Shown in pieces: positions 16,802 through 44,613 of a stretch of DNA of 64,000 nt. The notes below the pieces were generated by a model, which saw nothing but the letters and a program-made list of their open reading frames with translations, was not told where the DNA came from and did not search any database. Both the position numbers and the translations under genes were made by a program. The stretch comes from Escherichia coli (GTDB taxonomy: Bacteria; Pseudomonadota; Gammaproteobacteria; Enterobacterales; Enterobacteriaceae). The stretch is from assembly GCA_022969815.1 (NCBI GenBank), contig GCA_022969815.1_4535.1; one strand, 5' to 3'. Each line of letters starts with the position of its first letter. Position 1 is the stretch's first letter.

Positions 16802-18880
16802 TTATCTTCGACGAGGGGCACTTACCGTAGTGAAATGCCTTGAGTTCATGTTACTGTACCCAGTAGGTGCATTTGTTGTTGCAGGTATCGCTACAGCCTT
16901 GTGTGCCGTCTCTTTCGCCAGAGTGTTGAAGCAAGATGCTGCGGCATCTGGAAGGTCATCTTTAAGCATTGCTGTAGATCGTTCACCGTTAAAAGATTCC
17001 AATTCTTTATAAAAGTGATTCAAAGTTTCAATGTTAGGAAATGAATCTTCCACGATATAAACAAAGCCGTTCTGACAGGCACTACTGAATGGCATGAAAC
17101 GTTGGAGTTTCTTTTTGTTACCTGGCATTGCGTCCGGTTTAACAACGAAGCCTTCAACAATAAGTTTTTTAGCCGATTCCGTGTATTCGATGAGTCCAGC
17201 ACCAGACGGGTCTTTTGGAAGAACGATCTGAACATCTGGTCCATCAATCTTAGCTTGTTGGAGGATCAGGTTATCCCTGTCACCAGGTAAGCGTCGGAAT
17301 CTTCCGAAAACTTTACTCTTCTCGTCTATAGCATCGTAATCATAATCCCCGAAGATATAAATGTTCCCGTTTAGGTCTTTACCCATCTTAACAGATGCCG
17401 TATAGTCGGGATAACGATAACGTTCACTTGGAACGGATACAGCTTTATCCCATGCACGCATATACTTCATGTTGTTAGGAACATCTTTGTATTCTATCTT
17501 GTGAAGCCATTCACGTTGGAAGAATGATTCCTCTTGAATACGGGCAAACCAACAACCGTCCAGAAGCTGTGCTCGCTTGATCGCTGTCTGCGATTTAAGA
17601 GAAGCCAGGTATTTCGGGTTAAGGCGAATCAGTTCAGGGTTATCAAAGATCGTACCACCGATAAACACAAACGTTTGAGGCTCGATCGTAACAACCTCAC
17701 CAGTGTTTGGGTTCTCCATGAAACAGTTTTCAGGATACTTCTCTTTAAGTTCCTCTGCTGTGTCGGCAAATACAGGCTCATCATTTACAATAATGAAGTA
17801 GGTTTGTTTACCACACATATCTTCACGAGGATAACCACCTTCGTCAAGATAAGGTAACACCCAGTTCAGTACCCAGCTATCCGCATCGGGGTTACAGGTA
17901 CAGAGCATGAAAGATGTTTCTGACTCGGAACGCATACGACCGAGAAGATAAAGCATCTCATACTGGGTGAAATGGGTGAGTTCGTCAAAACCAACCATAC
18001 TGTACTGTGTACCCTGATGGTTAGTCTCGGCTGTAACGTTATCATTTTCCAGATGGTCAAACTTCAAAGTACCGCCGTTAGTGGCCTCGAAGATAATGTC
18101 CATCGTACTTTCTTTTACGTGCGGTTGTAAAGGCAGGTACAGACGTTTAGCTTCTGTAAACAAACCACCTGGCTTACGGTGTGCAGTGGTGTTCTTACGG
18201 AATAAGATACCACCGAACAAAGGATCTTTATAGGCAAACTTAAGAGCTTTTAGCAGTAGCAGACGAGACTTGCCGCTATTGCCAGTAACGAAGCAGTGAT
18301 TGCCCCGTCTAAGGACAATATAGCTACTTGGAGTTTCAAAGCAATATTTTTTATCATCGGATGTAATAACCTCGTGTATTTTTAAATAAGTGTTTTGTTT
18401 GCCTGGGATGTTAAACGGAACGCGCTTACCAAAAGGATCTTCAATGTATCCTTTCAGTGGTGCTCCTGCTTGTTGCAGAGCAATAAGATCTCCCACAGCA
18501 ATCTCAAAATGTTTTTTGGATTTCTTTTTCTTGTAAAAGACGAAACGATGTTCCATACTCAATTCTTGGAACACTCCTGCACCGTTAGTGATTCGGTACA
18601 AGTTATCATCTTTCATATCATATTCTACGAAGTAAGGCGTGACCAATTCTAAGCGTTTTCTCTTAGGATTATACTGATAGATATCTTCTCCGCTGTATTG
18701 GCTTATTTGTTTCCAGCCGTCGCGGGTAAGATACTCTGTTTCAGCAGATACACAACCTGCGGCACCACCATAAATCATAACTTCCGGCATTAGATCCATT
18801 GCCAGCGTCTGTTTACCTGGTTGAGCTTTTACTTCGATATCAGCGCCAGCTAAACTGCCAGCCGCTTTTTTCTTAGCCAC
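16802..18880 (-). CDS. terminase large subunit (intein-containing precursor)
   Basis: Walker B-like MVGFDELTHF plus downstream nuclease-like region; Walker A is reconstituted as YGGAAG|SGKS only after removal of residues 43-201. Confidence 0.8.
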   Translation of the reverse strand: MAKKKAAGSLAGADIEVKAQPGKQTLAMDLMPEVMIYGGAAGCVSAETEYLTRDGWKQISQYSGEDIYQYNPKRKRLELVTPYFVEYDMKDDNLYRITNGAGVFQELSMEHRFVFYKKKKSKKHFEIAVGDLIALQQAGAPLKGYIEDPFGKRVPFNIPGKQNTYLKIHEVITSDDKKYCFETPSSYIVLRRGNHCFVTGNSGKSRLLLLKALKFAYKDPLFGGILFRKNTTAHRKPGGLFTEAKRLYLPLQPHVKESTMDIIFEATNGGTLKFDHLENDNVTAETNHQGTQYSMVGFDELTHFTQYEMLYLLGRMRSESETSFMLCTCNPDADSWVLNWVLPYLDEGGYPREDMCGKQTYFIIVNDEPVFADTAEELKEKYPENCFMENPNTGEVVTIEPQTFVFIGGTIFDNPELIRLNPKYLASLKSQTAIKRAQLLDGCWFARIQEESFFQREWLHKIEYKDVPNNMKYMRAWDKAVSVPSERYRYPDYTASVKMGKDLNGNIYIFGDYDYDAIDEKSKVFGRFRRLPGDRDNLILQQAKIDGPDVQIVLPKDPSGAGLIEYTESAKKLIVEGFVVKPDAMPGNKKKLQRFMPFSSACQNGFVYIVEDSFPNIETLNHFYKELESFNGERSTAMLKDDLPDAAASCFNTLAKETAHKAVAIPATTNAPTGYSNMNSRHFTTVSAPRRR
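18278..18754 (-). mobile_element. mini-intein (159 aa, no endonuclease domain) in terminase P-loop
   Basis: Begins CVSAETEYLTRDG (canonical block A), internal SMEH (block B-like), ends ...HCFVTGN followed by Ser +1; excision yields perfect GxxxxGKS P-loop. Confidence 0.7.
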
Positions 18881-18889
18881 TTCTCCTCC

Positions 18890-19231
18890 TTACTTACTGA
18901 TAATCCCTTTCTCTTGCAGAGCCTTAATGTAGTTTTGTAAACCGATCACTTTGTTTCGGTCTTGACTCCAGAGAACATTATTTGTGGTCCCGTTATCAAC
19001 TACTTCAGAACGAGAAACACCTTTAGCAATTTGTTGATCTGTGTACGGTACAGGTTCACTTACACCTTCCATTAAAGAAGAGTCTGGTCCTCTGACTTCC
19101 TGCACTGCTACAGCTTTACATTCGTCAATTAGAATCGGGGAGGCTTTTGTTGAGGATGTGCAACCCGTCATCATTAGGGCCGAAGCAAGACATAGACCCA
19201 GTAGTAGTTTTTGCATAATTTGTTTTCTCAT
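18890..19231 (-). CDS. o-spanin (outer-membrane lipoprotein, Rz1-like), putative
   Basis: Signal peptide ending in lipobox-like ALMMTGC; gene overlaps 3' end of i-spanin gene in another frame. Confidence 0.45.
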   Translation of the reverse strand: MRKQIMQKLLLGLCLASALMMTGCTSSTKASPILIDECKAVAVQEVRGPDSSLMEGVSEPVPYTDQQIAKGVSRSEVVDNGTTNNVLWSQDRNKVIGLQNYIKALQEKGIISK

Positions 19232-19532
19232 CGTTTACCTTCTTCTCCTTGTTTGCTAAATCTTTTTTCAATTTAGCATTCTTTTCGGAGAGGGAAGCTA
19301 TTTGGTTGTTAAGTGCCAGACGTTCATCATCGGCTTTCTTTTGAAGAACATCGAAGTCTTGTTTAGCTTTTGCTTGTTGTTGCTGATAGATAGTTACTTG
19401 ATGTTGTTCTCCTGCTGCGTAACCATTATCATACAGAGCCTTTCCGCCGAAGTACAAACCAGCTAAAAGTGCAACTAACAGAAGAATAACGTAAAACCAC
19501 TTACTCTTCAGAATCATTGTTATCAGTGTCAT
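19125..19532 (-). CDS. i-spanin (Rz-like), putative
   Basis: N-terminal transmembrane helix WFYVILLLVALLAGLYF followed by coiled-coil-like periplasmic domain; overlapped by lipoprotein gene. Confidence 0.5.
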   Translation of the reverse strand: MTLITMILKSKWFYVILLLVALLAGLYFGGKALYDNGYAAGEQHQVTIYQQQQAKAKQDFDVLQKKADDERLALNNQIASLSEKNAKLKKDLANKEKKVNDEKTNYAKTTTGSMSCFGPNDDGLHILNKSLPDSN

Positions 19533-30772: not shown

Positions 30773-30996
30773 TGGCAACAACATTCTATTTTGAAGGTAG
30801 TGAGAAAAAGACTTCCATTACCTTTCAAAGAAACACACCAGCAGAAGATTTCTTATGGATGATAATCGATCATCTGAGAAGCGAAGGTATTCACCATATA
30901 GACGAGTATTTCGCAGAGTCTACAGACTGGCAAAACGTTGTTATGGAAGATGTTATTTTCGAACTACACCATATTATTACGGAGGAAGGAATTTGA
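30772..30996 (+). CDS. hypothetical protein
   Basis: ATG at 30772 (MATTFYFEG...) preferred within ORF 30757..30996. Confidence 0.45.
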   Translation: MATTFYFEGSEKKTSITFQRNTPAEDFLWMIIDHLRSEGIHHIDEYFAESTDWQNVVMEDVIFELHHIITEEGI

Positions 30997-32108
30997 AACA
31001 GACGAATCAAACACTTTACGGTAAAGACTCAAATGGCAAACTGAAGCAATGGACTGTTTTCACAGACGGTGCAACAGTTACTGTAGCTCACGGTAAAGTT
31101 GGTGGAAAGATTACACAAAAATCATACGAAGCGGAAGCTAAAAATACTGGACGTGCAAATGCAACCACTCCAGAAGAACAAGCAGAAGCTGAAGCTTTTG
31201 CCAAGTGGACAAAACAACTGAAAAATGGTTATTATAAAACTATGGAAGAGGCGGAGAACCACGTCCCATCCACACCTATGAAATGCCAGGACTATAAAGA
31301 TTTTGCGCATAAGGTGGTCTTCCCTGGATATGCACAATACAAACTGAATGGCTTACGTTCAATGATCAACATGAAGGGCGAATGTTTGTCTAAAGCTGGA
31401 GAAGTTTACAAACTCCCTCCGCACTGGCAAGGTATTCCAAACTTCATCAGCGAAGTTGTTGGTCATCCTCTGGATGGGGAAGTGTTCGCTGGTCTTGGTG
31501 TTCTTAGTTTGCAACAGATTAATAGTGCATGGAAAAAGCACAATGAGAACACGCCGCTCCTGAACTATTATGTTTATGATGTTCCTGTGGCAGATATGCC
31601 ATTTGAGAAGCGTGTTGAAGTATTGGCGGCTCTTAAGGCTGTAGCTGAAGAGAGTGGTCTGGATGAACTGATCTGTGTAGTACATACAGAGTATATTGAA
31701 AATCAAGAACAGTTGGATGCATTTTATGCTAAAGCTTTGCTTGAAAAAGCTGAAGGTATTGTGTATCGTAATGCTCATGGTGTCTATGAGTTTGATAAAC
31801 GTTCCTATGACGTGATCAAACGAAAACCGCGCCAGACTTTGGAAGTTAAAGTTATTTCTATGCGTTCTGATAAAAATAACGATGGGGTGTTGACAGGTGA
31901 GATGGAGAATGGTAAACTTGTTGAGTTCTTGATGCGAAAAGATGCTCACGAAACTATCAACTACCGTAAAGCAGAAAATGCCGAAACTTTGATTGATCAG
32001 TTTGTTGAGATTGAGTATGAAGAATTTTCTGACGAAGGTATCCCAACTAAACCAGTCGGTGTACGTCTTCGTAAAATGATCCCAGGGACTTGGGAGCCAG
32101 CAGAATAA
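30993..32108 (+). CDS. WGR-domain protein with ligase-like nucleotidyltransferase core (putative ATP-dependent DNA/RNA ligase)
   Basis: TTG start at 30993 with GGAGGAAGG RBS; N-terminal W...HGKVGGK...KNGYY (WGR-like); KLNGLR resembles ligase motif I KxDGxR (D to N); HPLDGEVF resembles motif IV. Confidence 0.45.
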   Translation: MKQTNQTLYGKDSNGKLKQWTVFTDGATVTVAHGKVGGKITQKSYEAEAKNTGRANATTPEEQAEAEAFAKWTKQLKNGYYKTMEEAENHVPSTPMKCQDYKDFAHKVVFPGYAQYKLNGLRSMINMKGECLSKAGEVYKLPPHWQGIPNFISEVVGHPLDGEVFAGLGVLSLQQINSAWKKHNENTPLLNYYVYDVPVADMPFEKRVEVLAALKAVAEESGLDELICVVHTEYIENQEQLDAFYAKALLEKAEGIVYRNAHGVYEFDKRSYDVIKRKPRQTLEVKVISMRSDKNNDGVLTGEMENGKLVEFLMRKDAHETINYRKAENAETLIDQFVEIEYEEFSDEGIPTKPVGVRLRKMIPGTWEPAE

Positions 32109-38534: not shown

Positions 38535-39152
38535 ATGAAGATAGTTTGTGATTGGGATCTGGTGGTTGCTCCACTGGATGTTGCTTGGCTGGAATGGTTG
38601 GTTAAAGTTAGCGGAGATTGTGTAGGCTTCTGCGGAGCTGTCAAAAATGTTGACTACGATCTTACTAAATACTTCCCAGGTTTCCGTGAGAAGTTTAACA
38701 TCGATCCTTACGGCTTTCTGGATAATTCCCATCTCTACGATACAATGGGATGTATCAAACCCATGGCTAACTTCTTAGAAGGTGTTGTGAAAGAGGGAGA
38801 TAATGCACTTATTGCAAGTGTGACTAAAGGTGGACACCTTAGCTCAAAACACAAACATGTTTTAAGAACTTTGCCAACCATCGATTTTGGTAAAGGTTCT
38901 GGTAATGGTTTCTTTGCCACAAAAGAAAAATACCTATTGCCTTGTGATATTGCCATAGATGACAGGGCAGAAAACCTGTTGTATTTTCCAGATCATGTTG
39001 TTAAGATTTACTACAATACGATGTATAAAGATTTGTATTTGGAAGAATTAAAAAAGAAACCAAATGTAGTTGTCACAGGTTTGTACAATCAAGCAGAAAC
39101 CTGTTGGCAAGTTTATTCAATGTTAAAAGAACGAGGAGAAATTAATGTCTAA
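38535..39152 (+). CDS. HAD-like 5'-nucleotidase, putative
   Basis: GAGGAGGG RBS; N-terminal IVCDWDLVV fits HAD motif I DxDxV; later DD motif; weak. Confidence 0.3.
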   Translation: MKIVCDWDLVVAPLDVAWLEWLVKVSGDCVGFCGAVKNVDYDLTKYFPGFREKFNIDPYGFLDNSHLYDTMGCIKPMANFLEGVVKEGDNALIASVTKGGHLSSKHKHVLRTLPTIDFGKGSGNGFFATKEKYLLPCDIAIDDRAENLLYFPDHVVKIYYNTMYKDLYLEELKKKPNVVVTGLYNQAETCWQVYSMLKERGEINV

Positions 39153-40140
39153 TATCAGTGCACAAGTCATCGCCCAGTCTATGAACGCAGAAGGGCAAGT
39201 GATTACAACTTTCGAACTGGAATACCCACGTATCATCCATTCTGAGTTGATGACGCACCGCTTATTCTCCCGCAACGCGGCTTCAAGCCGTGCTATTCCG
39301 GTGAAGACCCTGATTGAAATGGTTCGCAAAGAACCTGCTGCACCTGTTCGTTTTGGTCAACACCAACCTGGAATGCAGGATCAAGGCGTAGAATATGATG
39401 CTCTTATTGGGGCAGGTTACTCAGGTCGTGAGTGGTGGAATTTAGCTGCGCTTAGTGCAGCAAACTTTGCAGAACAAATGGCGGAAGCTGGTTACGCGAA
39501 GCAGGTTTGTAATCGCCTTCTTGAACCATTCCAGAGAATGAAGACGGTTCTGACAGCAACCGAGTATGAAAACTTCTGGTGGCTACGTGATGACGCTGAT
39601 GCTGATCCGACTATTGAAGCTTTAGCTAAAGTTATGTTTGAAGCTTATGAAGCCTCTACTCCAGAACTGCTGGCTCCAGGACAATGGCATACGCCTTACG
39701 TAGATCACGTCTACGAGAACATCGGTCTGGAAGGTGATGATGTTTTGGTATTCGCTGGGTATAGCACTACAGATGAAAATGGCAATACTGTCATGCTGTC
39801 GCTGGAAGAAGCACTTGCAATCTCTTCTTCTTGTTGCGCACAAGTGAGCTATCGTCGTCTGAATGCAACTAAAGACAAAGCTTTGGATATCTACGGACGT
39901 TTGCTTACTGGTCGTAAAGTCCACGCTTCTCCGTTTGAACATCAAGCTACACCTATGCAAGCAACCTTTGAACTTCTTGGTGAGAATGCGTCTGAAGATA
40001 TTCTTATTAACGTTCCGTGGTATGCAGCTTCTTGGGAAGTAGGTATTACTCACAGTGATCGTAACGAAAAACTGTGGTCTGGAAATTTCAAAGGATTTAT
40101 CCAGCACCGTCAGCTTTTAAATAATCATACTAAATGGTGA
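39145..40140 (+). CDS. thyX: flavin-dependent thymidylate synthase-like protein (ThyX family)
   Basis: THRLFSRNAASSR matches ThyX signature RHRx7S with first Arg replaced; C-terminal HASPFEHQ; 331 aa, longer than typical ThyX. Confidence 0.55.
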   Translation: MSNISAQVIAQSMNAEGQVITTFELEYPRIIHSELMTHRLFSRNAASSRAIPVKTLIEMVRKEPAAPVRFGQHQPGMQDQGVEYDALIGAGYSGREWWNLAALSAANFAEQMAEAGYAKQVCNRLLEPFQRMKTVLTATEYENFWWLRDDADADPTIEALAKVMFEAYEASTPELLAPGQWHTPYVDHVYENIGLEGDDVLVFAGYSTTDENGNTVMLSLEEALAISSSCCAQVSYRRLNATKDKALDIYGRLLTGRKVHASPFEHQATPMQATFELLGENASEDILINVPWYAASWEVGITHSDRNEKLWSGNFKGFIQHRQLLNNHTKW

Positions 40141-40917: not shown

Positions 40918-43164
40918 GTGATTCGATACGTTACTAAATCAAATGGCAAGACAGAAGAGTTTAATCCTGAAAAACTGCGTAAATGGTCTGAATTTGCAGC
41001 AGGGAAACTGAACTGGTCGGAAATTGAATTAGAAGCTGTGAAACGTTGTTACGATGGGGTGTCTACTCGTGATTTACATAAAGCTATGATCGCCGCATGT
41101 ATTGACAAAAAGACCCAAGCGTATAGCGACATGGCAGGTCGATTGCTTCTCGGTATGATTTACAAACAGGCTCACGGGGGATACCACAGTATCCCTTCCC
41201 TGTACACCTTCTACCAGGATATGGTGAAGCGTGGACATTGGGCTAAGATGGATTATACCGAAGAAGAAATCAAAGAGATTGGTAAGATTGTCAAACACAA
41301 CAAGAATCTAACCTACGGTTATTCCGTTCTTCGTCAGATGGCAGATAAATACCTGGTTCGTGATGCTGTGAATGATGTTGTTCATGAGTCACCGCAATTC
41401 CTGTTTATTGGTGTGGCAATGCGTGTTATGGAGATCCAGCCTAAAGATCGTCGTATTGACGATATCAAAAAGCTGTACACATATGTAAGTGATCTTCAGA
41501 TTAACTTACCATCTCCATATCTGACAACGTTACGTACTCCGATCAAGGGTAGCGCGTCTTGTTGTTTATTCCGTGCAGACGATACAGCAGAGTCTTTGGC
41601 TATTGCAAACTATCTGGCACACGAATACACGTTAAATAATGCAGGGATTGGTGTTAACCTCCAGACCCGTGCAACGGGACAGGGTGTTAAGAACAACCGT
41701 ATCATTCATGGTGGTCTTCTCCCTTACCTGAAGTGGATGGAAGATAGTGTAGGAGCTTCTAAACAAGCGAGTCGTGGTGGTAGTGCAACGGTTACGTTCA
41801 CAATCTTGGAGCCAGATTTTGAAGATCTGATTCGACTGAAGAACCCAACCACTCCGATCGATAAGCGTGTTGATAAGCTGGATTATTCTGTTGTTGTAAA
41901 CCGCTCCTTCCTTCGCCGTGCTGCTAAAGGTGAAGAGTGGATGCTTGTGAGTTGTGACGAAGCACCGGAACTTTACGAAGCACTGTACAAAAGTGAAGAA
42001 GAGTTCGATGCTGTCTACGATAAAGTTAGTCGCCGTCGCATCAAAAAGAAAATTGTTAAGGCTCGTGACCTGTTGACTGAAATCATTGTTCAACGTGCAG
42101 AGACTGGACGTATTTATATGTTCTTCGCTGACAACGTAAACAATCACACTCCTTTCCTGGATACCGTGTATCAGTCGAACTTATGTCAGGAGATCTTTTT
42201 ACCTACTAAAGCGTTCCATAAAATGACGGATCTCTTTACTGGTGAAAACACAGAAGATCAAGAATTGGCTTTATGCTTCTTGTCCTCTATCGTTGCTGGG
42301 CGAGTTACGCCGGAGCAATACGAAGATGTTGCGTACTACACTGTATTGACGATTGATAACGTTATTGAGACGATGGAATACCCATTCAAACATAACGAGA
42401 TCACAGCTAAGGCTCGCCGCTCTATTGGCGTAGGTATTACAAACCTTGCACATTATCTGGCAAGCAACTTTGTAACCTATTCTGATCCTTATGCGAAGAA
42501 GCTGATGCATGAATTAGCAGAACGTCATTACTTCTGGTTGGCACAAGCCTCTCTGCGCTTGGCGAAAGAGAAAGGTAATGCCGAGTGGATGGATAAAACT
42601 AAGTGGCCTCAAGGTTGGCTCCCTATTGACACCTACGCTAAAGCAGTAGATACTATTGGGGACTTTGAACTGAAGCTGGATTGGGAAGGCTTACGTGCTG
42701 GTATCATTGAACAAGGCGGTATCCGTAACAGTGTGCTTGCAGCAGTGGCCCCGAACGAATCAAGTAGCTTGGTGAGTAACACTACCAACTCACTCTACCC
42801 TGTACGTGACACGATCATGTACAAACAGAGTCAGAAAGGTAACGTACTGTTTATCGTACCGGATTACGAAAAACTGAAAATGTTCTATCAGTCGGCGTGG
42901 GATACCCCGTCTAAAGATATTGCCGAGATGTACGGACTCTTCACTAAGTTTACGGATCAGGGTATCTCCTGTGATGCTTGGTTGGATTATTCCAAAATGG
43001 AAGGTGGACGTTTATCAGTGAAAGCCGAGATGCAGTTTATCTTGACATTTGCAAAACTTGGTGGTAAATCTCTTTACTACCTGAACAGCCGAACCAAATC
43101 AGCGGAATCTATGGCCCAAGAAGACAACCTGAAAGAGTCTGGATGTGAGGGTTGCAGCATGTGA
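40918..43164 (+). CDS. nrdA: ribonucleoside-diphosphate reductase alpha subunit (class Ia)
   Basis: GTG start with GGGAGGA RBS; ATP-cone-like N-terminus, active-site motif SNLCQEIFLP, C-terminal CEGCSM redox cysteines; 748 aa. Confidence 0.85.
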   Translation: MIRYVTKSNGKTEEFNPEKLRKWSEFAAGKLNWSEIELEAVKRCYDGVSTRDLHKAMIAACIDKKTQAYSDMAGRLLLGMIYKQAHGGYHSIPSLYTFYQDMVKRGHWAKMDYTEEEIKEIGKIVKHNKNLTYGYSVLRQMADKYLVRDAVNDVVHESPQFLFIGVAMRVMEIQPKDRRIDDIKKLYTYVSDLQINLPSPYLTTLRTPIKGSASCCLFRADDTAESLAIANYLAHEYTLNNAGIGVNLQTRATGQGVKNNRIIHGGLLPYLKWMEDSVGASKQASRGGSATVTFTILEPDFEDLIRLKNPTTPIDKRVDKLDYSVVVNRSFLRRAAKGEEWMLVSCDEAPELYEALYKSEEEFDAVYDKVSRRRIKKKIVKARDLLTEIIVQRAETGRIYMFFADNVNNHTPFLDTVYQSNLCQEIFLPTKAFHKMTDLFTGENTEDQELALCFLSSIVAGRVTPEQYEDVAYYTVLTIDNVIETMEYPFKHNEITAKARRSIGVGITNLAHYLASNFVTYSDPYAKKLMHELAERHYFWLAQASLRLAKEKGNAEWMDKTKWPQGWLPIDTYAKAVDTIGDFELKLDWEGLRAGIIEQGGIRNSVLAAVAPNESSSLVSNTTNSLYPVRDTIMYKQSQKGNVLFIVPDYEKLKMFYQSAWDTPSKDIAEMYGLFTKFTDQGISCDAWLDYSKMEGGRLSVKAEMQFILTFAKLGGKSLYYLNSRTKSAESMAQEDNLKESGCEGCSM

Positions 43165-43202: not shown

Positions 43203-43541
43203 ATGAGCACACTTATAGTTTTACCTGGAGTAACCCCAATCTACCGACCTGGGTTTAAGCCTCTGTTGATTCGCCCTGAAGATTTTACCCCTACTTGGTG
43301 TCACCATTATCTTGGTGGGCTTGAAATAGCTAACATGCAGATTTGGGAATCTTTTTATCCAGAAGCCACGGCTTACGCAATAACAAGGGCAAGAAGTGAA
43401 GAAACAGTGACTGTTATACTTGGTAGAAGCGTATGGGAAGCACTGGAAGCTTTCTACCGGAGCAATGATTTTGAGGAAGAAGATATTTTAAGCTTAAGAG
43501 GTTTTTGTGAAATAGTGGAGGATTTAAATGGCAGCAATTAA
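43203..43541 (+). CDS. hypothetical protein
   Basis: GAGGAGAG RBS. Confidence 0.5.
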   Translation: MSTLIVLPGVTPIYRPGFKPLLIRPEDFTPTWCHHYLGGLEIANMQIWESFYPEATAYAITRARSEETVTVILGRSVWEALEAFYRSNDFEEEDILSLRGFCEIVEDLNGSN

Positions 43542-44613
43542 TTTACATAACGAGACTTACAAAACAGGTAAATATCCAGTTTTCATGGGGGAACAGTTGG
43601 GGATTTTTGATTCTATCAACGTGACTTACCCTGAAATGCACCGTCTGTATAAACTCCAGAAAGCCCAAGATTGGGATGAGAATGAAGTGGATCTTAGTCA
43701 GACCCGTAAAGACTTTGTAGCGTGTTCAAAAAACAACTACGATGTTATGATCAAGAACTTGTCGTTCCAGTGGGAGAATGATTCCCTGGCAAAATCAATC
43801 ATCACTTTGTTCTCTCCGTTTTTGAGCAACAATGAAGCTTGCGCTATGATGATGAAGCAGAGTGAAATGGAAGTGCTTCATGCTCTAACTTACTCGGAGA
43901 TCGTTCGCCAGTGTACTCCAAACCCTGTAGAAGTTATTGATCAGATTATGGAGAACGATAAGATCTTCAACCGTATGGGTATCATTGCAGAGATCATGGG
44001 AGATTTGGAAGAAGCAGGTCACAAATATGCACTTGGTCTGATTGAAGCTGATGATAAACTACGTTTGCTGGTCATGAAAGGTCTGGTAGCCCTGATTGGT
44101 CTGGAAGGTATCCAGTTTATCTCTTCTTTCTCGGCAACGTTCGCCTTGGCAGAACAGCAACTGTTTGTAGGTGCTTGTAAACTGATTCAGAAAATCATGT
44201 TGGATGAAATCCTGCATGTTAAAATGGACTATGCTGTCATTGATGCTCTGATGCAAGATCCTGTGTGGAAAAAGATCTACGAAGATAACATCGAAGAACT
44301 TACGACTATTCTGGATACAGTTATCGCTCAAGAAGAGCAGTGGTGTGATTATCTGTTTAGTGAAGGACGTTTTATCGTTGGACTGAATGCTGAACTATCC
44401 CGTCAATGGGTGTACTTCAATGCGGCTCCAATTTATCGTCGTCTGAAGATGAAGCACAGCTTTAAATCTCCTAAACAGAACCCACTACCTTGGATGGACA
44501 TTTGGTTAAACCCAGATCAGATTCAAGCAGCGGCGCAAGAGATCCAAGTTACAGCTTATAAACTGAACTCGGCTAACAAAGATGTTTCTGATGATATGGA
44601 GTTTGACTTCTAA
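43528..44613 (+). CDS. nrdB: ribonucleoside-diphosphate reductase beta subunit (class Ia)
   Basis: Di-iron ligand helices (EVLHALTYSE), acidic C-terminal tail ending DDMEFDF; 361 aa. Confidence 0.8.
   Translation: MAAINLHNETYKTGKYPVFMGEQLGIFDSINVTYPEMHRLYKLQKAQDWDENEVDLSQTRKDFVACSKNNYDVMIKNLSFQWENDSLAKSIITLFSPFLSNNEACAMMMKQSEMEVLHALTYSEIVRQCTPNPVEVIDQIMENDKIFNRMGIIAEIMGDLEEAGHKYALGLIEADDKLRLLVMKGLVALIGLEGIQFISSFSATFALAEQQLFVGACKLIQKIMLDEILHVKMDYAVIDALMQDPVWKKIYEDNIEELTTILDTVIAQEEQWCDYLFSEGRFIVGLNAELSRQWVYFNAAPIYRRLKMKHSFKSPKQNPLPWMDIWLNPDQIQAAAQEIQVTAYKLNSANKDVSDDMEFDF

Follow-up and report, generated by a model that had tools for sequence, protein, structure and literature searches.

A predicted mini-intein in the Walker A loop of the large terminase of a Phapecoctavirus-like coliphage

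The gene for the large subunit of the terminase (terL) in a 64,000-nucleotide stretch of DNA deposited under Escherichia coli (contig GCA_022969815.1_4535.1 of assembly GCA_022969815.1; the whole stretch is hereinafter the window) raises a straightforward question, namely, how an ATPase can function when 159 amino acid residues separate the two halves of its nucleotide-binding Walker A loop (P-loop). The DNA of the window belongs to an E. coli myophage of the Phapecoctavirus-like type. A first-pass annotation of this DNA had interpreted the insert as a mini-intein, and this interpretation is supported by the insertion point, the predicted HINT fold, homology to a proven intein and the pattern of conservation. 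In our assessment, residues 43-201 of the terL product are very probably a functional mini-intein that is excised from the precursor with ligation of the flanking sequences (exteins).

The interrupted Walker A loop

The terL precursor open reading frame (ORF; 16802..18880, minus strand) starts with GTG, with a GGAGG sequence at 18885-18889, 4 nucleotides (nt) upstream, and encodes a protein of 692 amino acids (aa) with a calculated mass of 78.7 kDa that matches Terminase_6N in Pfam (E 3.9e-17) and phrog_979, 'terminase large subunit', in PHROGs (E 1e-213). The product is a large terminase of the Terminase_6 (T4-like) family, with an N-terminal P-loop ATPase domain and a C-terminal RNase H-like nuclease domain. 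For the spliced sequence, the Terminase_6N match (E 3.1e-19) is above the cut-off and begins at profile position 1; the Terminase_6C match is weak (E 0.009, below the cut-off) in this sequence and clear in the homologues.

The N-extein (residues 1-42; 18755..18880, minus strand) ends in VMIYGGAAG, with the first half of the Walker A motif encoded at 18755-18766. The C-extein (residues 202-692 and the stop codon; 16802..18277, minus strand), which comprises the remaining part of the ATPase domain and the nuclease domain, starts with SGKSRLLLLKALKF, with the second half of the motif at 18266-18277; in intein-free homologues, GAAG runs straight into SGKS. The element between the exteins (18278..18754, minus strand; 159 aa, 18.6 kDa) extends from Cys1 to Asn159 and lacks a homing endonuclease domain. 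Its boundaries are those originally proposed: Cys43 of the precursor (18752-18754) opens the sequence CVSAETEYLTRDG, and the insert ends in FVTGN, with Asn at residue 201 (18278-18280) and Ser202 next. Equally in line with the proposal, the precursor contains no [AG]x4GK[ST] pattern, and deletion of residues 43-201 yields exactly one, GAAGSGKS at residue 39, in a product computed at 533 aa, the length that had been estimated; such an outcome is far beyond chance. Given that the P-loop is physically split, TerL can work only after excision and ligation.

A homologue search with the whole protein retrieved 1,287 relatives, with size classes of approximately 690-700 aa (the same insert), 505-530 aa (no insert), 656-672 aa (an insert of 146-152 aa) and 800-850 aa (an insert of 301-328 aa). 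In 40 homologues with inserts of 146-328 aa, all the inserts occupy the identical point, start with Cys and end with (T/S)GN before Ser. The alignment to intein-free terminases that the first-pass annotation had called for places the junction where it was predicted, with at least 60 homologues reading IYGGAAG directly into SGKSRL. The nearest insert-free TerL (514 aa, 62% identical) is encoded on a 141 kb contig where, as in the window, terL is followed by the portal gene, and 42 of 60 nt around the site are identical. These alignments show an insertion that keeps the reading frame, occupies a conserved position in its host protein and is missing, exactly to the residue, in orthologues, as is expected of an intein.

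Fold, catalytic residues and spread of the insert

An AlphaFold2 model of the insert, built with a 30-sequence alignment, is confident (pLDDT 90.4, pTM 0.84) and all-beta, and each of the best 50 matches in a Foldseek search against the PDB is an intein or a HINT domain; the predicted fold is that of an intein. The profile of the family matches the sequence of the AceL NrdHF intein in hmmsearch, and comparison of the family with AceL NrdHF by hhalign gives a probability of 96.9% (E 1.7e-10). Moreover, the C-terminal 40 residues align globally with AceL NrdHF, the sequence of which was taken from the supplement of PMC7891396 (z ~4.9, a score reached by 1 of 1000 shuffles), in a register that matches C138 and P142 to C124 and P128 of that intein, with a shared VTGN ending before Ser.

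The conserved blocks, all on the minus strand, were surveyed in a census of 181 copies from the best 150 family proteins, with the residue at +1 counted in 185 copies. Block A, C1-VSAETEYLTRDG-W14 (18716..18754), does not vary at Cys1, Thr6, Gly13 or Trp14 among the terminase copies; in the census, Cys1 is present in 177 copies, Thr6 in 167 and Trp14 in 171. Block B, GVFQEL-S66-ME-H69-R70-F71-VF (18536..18577), which includes the SMEH motif noticed in the first-pass annotation (intein residues 66-69), has Ser at B:7, His at B:10, Arg at B:11 and Phe at B:12, and aligns with S65/H68/R69/M70 of AceL NrdHF. Position B:7 is Ser or Thr in 174 of the 181 copies and B:10 is His in 180; B:12 is a plain hydrophobic residue across the family, with Trp in just 2 copies. 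Block F, KK-Y137-C138-FET-P142-SSYIVL (18311..18352), carries Cys at F:4 (Cys138; 178/181), along with the Tyr (158/181) and the Pro (123/181). Finally, block G with the +1 residue, HCFV-T157-G158-N159 followed by S(+1) (18275..18298), has an ending identical to that of AceL NrdHF, and the census shows Thr or Ser at G:5 in 169 copies, Gly at G:6 in 178 and Asn at G:7 in all 181. The residue at +1 is Ser in 102 copies, Cys in 59 and Thr in 24, and no other residue was found. The predicted catalytic residues of an intein, S66-x-x-H69, N159 and S+1, are all in place. A bacterial intein-like (BIL) domain was considered and rejected, given that Ser is present at +1, a site that is always S, C or T, whereas BIL domains have no +1 nucleophile.

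The penultimate residue, already remarked upon as Gly in place of the usual His, is Gly158, and because the same residue occupies G:6 in nearly all copies of the census, it is a character of the clade rather than a peculiarity of the window copy. A penultimate His is common but not defining, and splicing without it is documented (PMC7891396; references in PMC4031507).

The clade to which the insert belongs is large. A scan of 1.84 billion cluster representatives with the family profile detected 12,788 proteins at E 1e-3 and 3,729 at E 1e-10, many of them with several copies of the element and some with at least three (for example, P0127, a protein of 2602 aa, P0144 and P0158). About half of the 181 sampled copies reside in P-loops, and 9 in RtcB. 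The same element, with Cys1, KYCF and TGN, splits the RtcB ligase between VDIG and CGM in Corynebacterium and Bacillus phages; other members of the clade occur in the helicase-like P-loop of an Enterocloster phage, in the primase/helicase P-loop of Pseudomonas phage KIL1 and in further terminases. To judge from the sequences, such occurrence at catalytic motifs of unrelated genes is a signature of mobility. Rare members of the clade lack Cys1, as do P0172 (residue 39), with Pro1, and P0263 (residue 523), with Ala1; both keep Cys F:4 and TGN, and they may represent class 3-type derivatives that arose naturally within a clade marked by Cys1. In the window, a six-frame hmmsearch detected no further copy of the family. 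The genes for DNA ligase (30855-32108), ThyX (39145-40140), NrdA (40918-43164) and NrdB (43528-44613), all on the plus strand, are favoured intein targets in other phages; in the window, their Pfam matches are uninterrupted, and they contain no inserts and no match to this intein family.

The initial claim that 159 aa leave no space for a homing endonuclease domain holds, in that the HINT model accounts for the entire chain; the element consists of the splicing domain alone, with no endonuclease between blocks B and F, and so is a mini-intein. Among the census copies, 150 of 181 are at least 280 aa long and 13 are shorter than 200 aa. The terminase copies of 301-328 aa are longer by approximately 165 residues, a stretch that separates block B from block F and has two LAGLIDADG-like motifs and weak matches to LAGLIDADG_3; the window copy lacks this stretch and, therefore, is unable to home. 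All 66 near-full-length megablast relatives carry the insert without a break, and intein identity tracks extein identity across 16 relatives. In the comparison with phage JohannJBalmer, in which synonymous sites are saturated, the ratio of nonsynonymous to synonymous differences per site (pN/pS) is 0.115 for the intein and 0.159 for the C-extein. The intein appears to be inherited vertically with terL and kept functional throughout the Phapecoctavirus/Justusliebigvirus group, as would be expected of an intein that lacks an endonuclease and interrupts an essential motif. The GC content of the intein is 39.0% (GC3 36.5%), compared with 41.1-45.3% in equal-sized segments of the C-extein and a mean of 42.0% for the window, which suggests a faint, although not decisive, trace of foreign origin despite the long co-divergence with terL.

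The splicing route and the alternatives

We propose that, in the translated 78.7 kDa precursor, the HINT domain would part GAAG from SGKS, so that the ATPase of the precursor would be unable to bind nucleotide. The intein would then excise itself, with a peptide bond joining Gly42 to Ser202, to yield a 60.2 kDa TerL with the Walker A motif GAAGSGKS and the junction peptide QTLAMDLMPEVMIYGGAAGSGK, along with the free 18.6 kDa intein. At the chemical level, Ser66 and His69 would strain the N-terminal scissile bond, a thioester would form on Cys1 and/or Cys138, the N-extein would then move to Ser+1, and Asn159 would cyclize without a penultimate His, aided by Arg70, as in AceL NrdHF. The element itself probably descended from a homing intein that carried a LAGLIDADG endonuclease and targeted P-loops and a few other conserved phage sites. 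Splicing in E. coli is strongly implied because viable phages need an intact TerL P-loop; the host-labelled relatives are isolated, plaque-forming lytic phages.

The residues concerned have been dissected in AceL NrdHF, where they are S65, H68, R69, M70, C124, T144, G145, N146 and S+1 (PMC7891396). That intein depends on C124 as its class 3 nucleophile, which modelling places 3.0 Å from the scissile carbonyl, and the G145H mutant is inactive. Its R69 is in contact with the carbonyl of the C-terminal scissile bond; splicing is slower in the R69A mutant and approximately 10-fold slower in T144A (PMC7891396). The equivalents of C124, G145, R69 and T144 in the window intein are C138, G158, R70 and T157.

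Several observations weigh against a working intein or against parts of the proposed chemistry. The structure of the insert is a prediction. Its 159 aa have no match to any curated intein hidden Markov model (HMM) in Pfam (E up to 1) or NCBIfam (E up to 10), a single-sequence phmmer search of the insert against the PDB returned noise alone, and a word-indexed homologue search with the intein alone recovered five fragments, so that the full-length query was required. The closest characterized relative, AceL NrdHF, is split, starts with Ala1 rather than Cys1, and is just ~21-24% identical. Furthermore, Arg occupies B:11 in just 95 of the 181 copies and, therefore, is not a general substitute for the missing His. 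Other searches were similarly uninformative: the longer relatives likewise match no intein family in Pfam or NCBIfam, a PHROGs scan of the 159 aa recovered just the terminase family, the profile of which already includes the insert, and a PhoH-like family, and a profile of the C-terminal 42 residues gave spurious matches to clostridial toxin repeats alone in the PDB. The intein-profile search suggested in the first-pass annotation thus failed with the Pfam and NCBIfam libraries and succeeded with a profile built on the family, which matches a solved intein, AceL NrdHF, with E 4e-12; given this match, the missing HMM hit is a gap in the libraries rather than evidence against membership.

The alternative that survives best presupposes that the element is an intein and concerns the mechanism alone. 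In a pure class 1 route, Cys1 alone would start the reaction by an N-S acyl shift, Ser+1 would attack the linear thioester, and Cys138 would be a mere helper, a role that at F:4 is usually played by Asp. We consider this route a serious contender, albeit not the favored one. Cys1 is kept in 177 of 181 copies across hosts and at ~25% identity, which is hard to explain if it is dispensable; block B contains the class 1-like S/T-x-x-H, and an ordinary hydrophobic residue rather than Trp occupies B:12. According to Hoffmann et al. (PMC7891396), B:7 and B:12 behave class 1-like in AceL NrdHF. However, Cys F:4 is equally invariant (178/181), the cysteine at this place on the same scaffold lies ~3.0 Å from the scissile carbonyl and is an essential nucleophile (PMC7891396), the rare members without Cys1 (Pro1 in P0172, Ala1 in P0263) retain Cys F:4 and TGN, and conservation extends to Thr G:5, which is a hallmark of class 3.

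Hoffmann et al. define class 3 by the lack of Cys at the N-end and the presence of Cys at C2:4 (PMC7891396), and because Cys1 is present, the window intein does not belong to class 3 under this operational definition. It possesses two of the three residues of the WCT triplet (Cys138 and Thr157), with Phe71 at B:12, a position taken by Met in the proven class 3 relative. Tori and Perler (2011) reportedly found that inteins in which Ser1 or Cys1 accompanies the WCT motif still splice by the class 3 route. Weighing these sequence features, we lean slightly to the view that Cys138 is an obligatory thiol, either class 3-like or part of a relay from Cys1 via Cys138 to Ser+1, rather than a helper.

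A more specific and considerably more tentative possibility is that the entire clade, with its combination of Cys1, Cys F:4, Thr G:5 and Gly G:6, runs the thioester relay from Cys1 through Cys138 to Ser+1 and so represents a living form of the long-postulated ancestor of class 3. If this were the case, class 3 inteins would have arisen by loss of Cys1, which would favor the view that they diverged from a standard phage intein (Tori and Perler) over the view that they arose convergently from a cysteine protease (Beyer et al. 2020), and a fourth splicing route would be at hand in a genetically tractable E. coli phage.

Conceivably, although in our view improbably, splicing is conditional, with a Cys1-Cys138 disulfide or another form of redox or metal gating making TerL active under certain conditions or late in infection, so that the intein is a regulatory switch. 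The two cysteines, both invariant, are predicted to share one active site, and a class 3 DnaB intein is documented to splice in a redox-sensitive manner (PMC6195587). The element has also reached fixation throughout the phage group, and selection acts on it as strongly as on TerL, but any intein that lacks an endonuclease and sits in an essential site would equally be expected to show fixation and purifying selection because imprecise loss of the intein is lethal. In addition, the E. coli cytoplasm is reducing, and AceL NrdHF splices within minutes without a trigger (PMC7891396).

The loss of the endonuclease, the missing penultimate His and the failure of intein HMMs to detect the element could be taken to suggest a HINT domain that has decayed to a pseudo-intein or, like BIL domains, merely cleaves; it would perform no ligation, and the TerL function would be supplied otherwise. 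This we find highly implausible: all catalytic positions are intact and under purifying selection, the window contains no second terL and no second copy of the family, the sole Walker A loop depends on ligation, and the relatives are viable lytic phages. The least credible of the alternatives, a permanent ATPase domain that is never removed, which the first-pass annotation had named as the finding that would contradict it, or an in-frame intron acting at the RNA level, agrees with the conservation of the insert in all close relatives but not with its absence, to the residue, from distant orthologues, with the HINT fold and intein catalytic residues, with the presence of the same domain in unrelated proteins at other catalytic motifs, with the lack of any P-loop in a motor that retained the domain, or, for the intron, with the purifying selection at the amino acid level and saturated synonymous sites, which imply that the insert is translated.

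Phage context, annotation and known systems

The terL region shares 98.9% nt identity with phages phiWec188 and phiWec190, and ~81% with phages of the phAPEC8 type. A Mu-type portal gene lies directly downstream of terL. Directly upstream are two overlapping ORFs (18890-19231 and 19125-19532, minus strand) that resemble an o-spanin/i-spanin pair, one with a lipoprotein-type signal (...LMMTGC) and the other a membrane-anchored coiled-coil ORF that it overlaps; the spanin assignment comes from the match to the o-spanin/i-spanin annotation at the same position in BASEL phages. The stop codon of ORF 18890-19231 abuts the terL ribosome-binding site. Some terL genes that are almost the same as those of E. 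coli phages are filed under Pseudomonas phage PsgM04F (98.5% nt identity), Acinetobacter phage ABPW7, Campylobacter phages A150/A110a and Serratia phage KKP_3264, and these host labels look doubtful for this lineage.

Among the GenBank matches listed, none names an intein: the annotations are terminase or hypothetical protein, with one 'large terminase with endonuclease', and the two records examined in full contain no intein feature. BASEL table S5 gives 0 inteins for Bas61 (EmilieFrey, MZ501063, 676-2760), although its TerL has the same 158-aa insert, 1 intein for Bas62 and 2 for Bas60, with the genes unspecified. A 2024 paper states that no inteins were reported in coliphages (PMC11162368). 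In phage Av-05 (NC_025830, 2411-3541), TerL is annotated as a 377-aa coding sequence that ends soon after the intein, a 241-aa family member at the same P-loop site with an apparently partly deleted endonuclease region.

An intein in a terminase P-loop is of the ordinary, textbook kind; the clade, with two conserved cysteines and no penultimate His, is poorly annotated. At least 12,788 cluster representatives are invisible to the Pfam and NCBIfam intein models, and this unannotated clade reaches widely used coliphages, including the phAPEC8-like and phi92-like phages and BASEL Bas60-62. The near-invariant pair of Cys1 and Cys F:4, along with the Thr-Gly-Asn end, bears on the origin of class 3 splicing, and just one relative, with Ala1, has been studied so far. 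A native intein in an essential gene of a lytic E. coli phage is also a model system in which splicing, its timing and its effect on fitness are open to ordinary genetics, and a compact, fast, His-independent, Ser+1-compatible intein may interest protein engineers.

Terminases are a common intein target, and P-loops a favored site (PMC4760082; PMC5050341; PMC2807308). The mycobacteriophage TerL inteins described by Kelley et al. 2016 (PMC5050341) likewise lie in or beside the P-loop of the large-terminase ATPase domain; they include inteins of Terminase_6-type TerL, belong to both class 1 and class 3, and were spliced in a reporter (PMC5050341). Unlike the window intein, they come from actinophage hosts and other lineages, end in the usual His-Asn and carry either the WCT motif (class 3) or Asp at F:4 (class 1), and most have active endonucleases. 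The canonical class 3 inteins (MP-Be DnaB, Msm/Mch DnaB-1; PMC2807308, PMC7664689) share with the window intein Cys F:4, Thr G:5 and Ser or Thr at +1, as well as the association with phages and the tendency to occupy P-loops in helicase-like ATPases, terminases among them.

Inteins of the same clade in phage RtcB, helicase and primase genes, for example, those of Corynebacterium phage Lederberg gp59, Bacillus phage BCP8-2 RtcB and the primase/helicase of Pseudomonas phage KIL1, have the blocks CVDxDTEYLTPxGW, S-x-x-H, KYCF and TGN in common with the window copy, are 37-43% identical to it in the aligned parts and are likewise inserted in P-loops or catalytic motifs. They differ from it in being full-length (311-322 aa), with a LAGLIDADG-like endonuclease region, and the RtcB copies use Cys at +1; actinophage RtcB inteins, including members of this clade, have already been catalogued (10.1101/2025.01.02.630785). 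The characterized relative, AceL NrdHF-1-1 (PDB 6ZGQ; Hoffmann et al. 2020, PMC7891396), is a class 3 intein by experiment, with Ala1 where the window intein has Cys1 and an identity of ~21-24%. It is naturally split, is accompanied by a free-standing GIY-YIG endonuclease gene and resides in a ribonucleotide reductase, whereas the window intein is contiguous, occupies the P-loop of TerL and has relatives that bear LAGLIDADG endonucleases.

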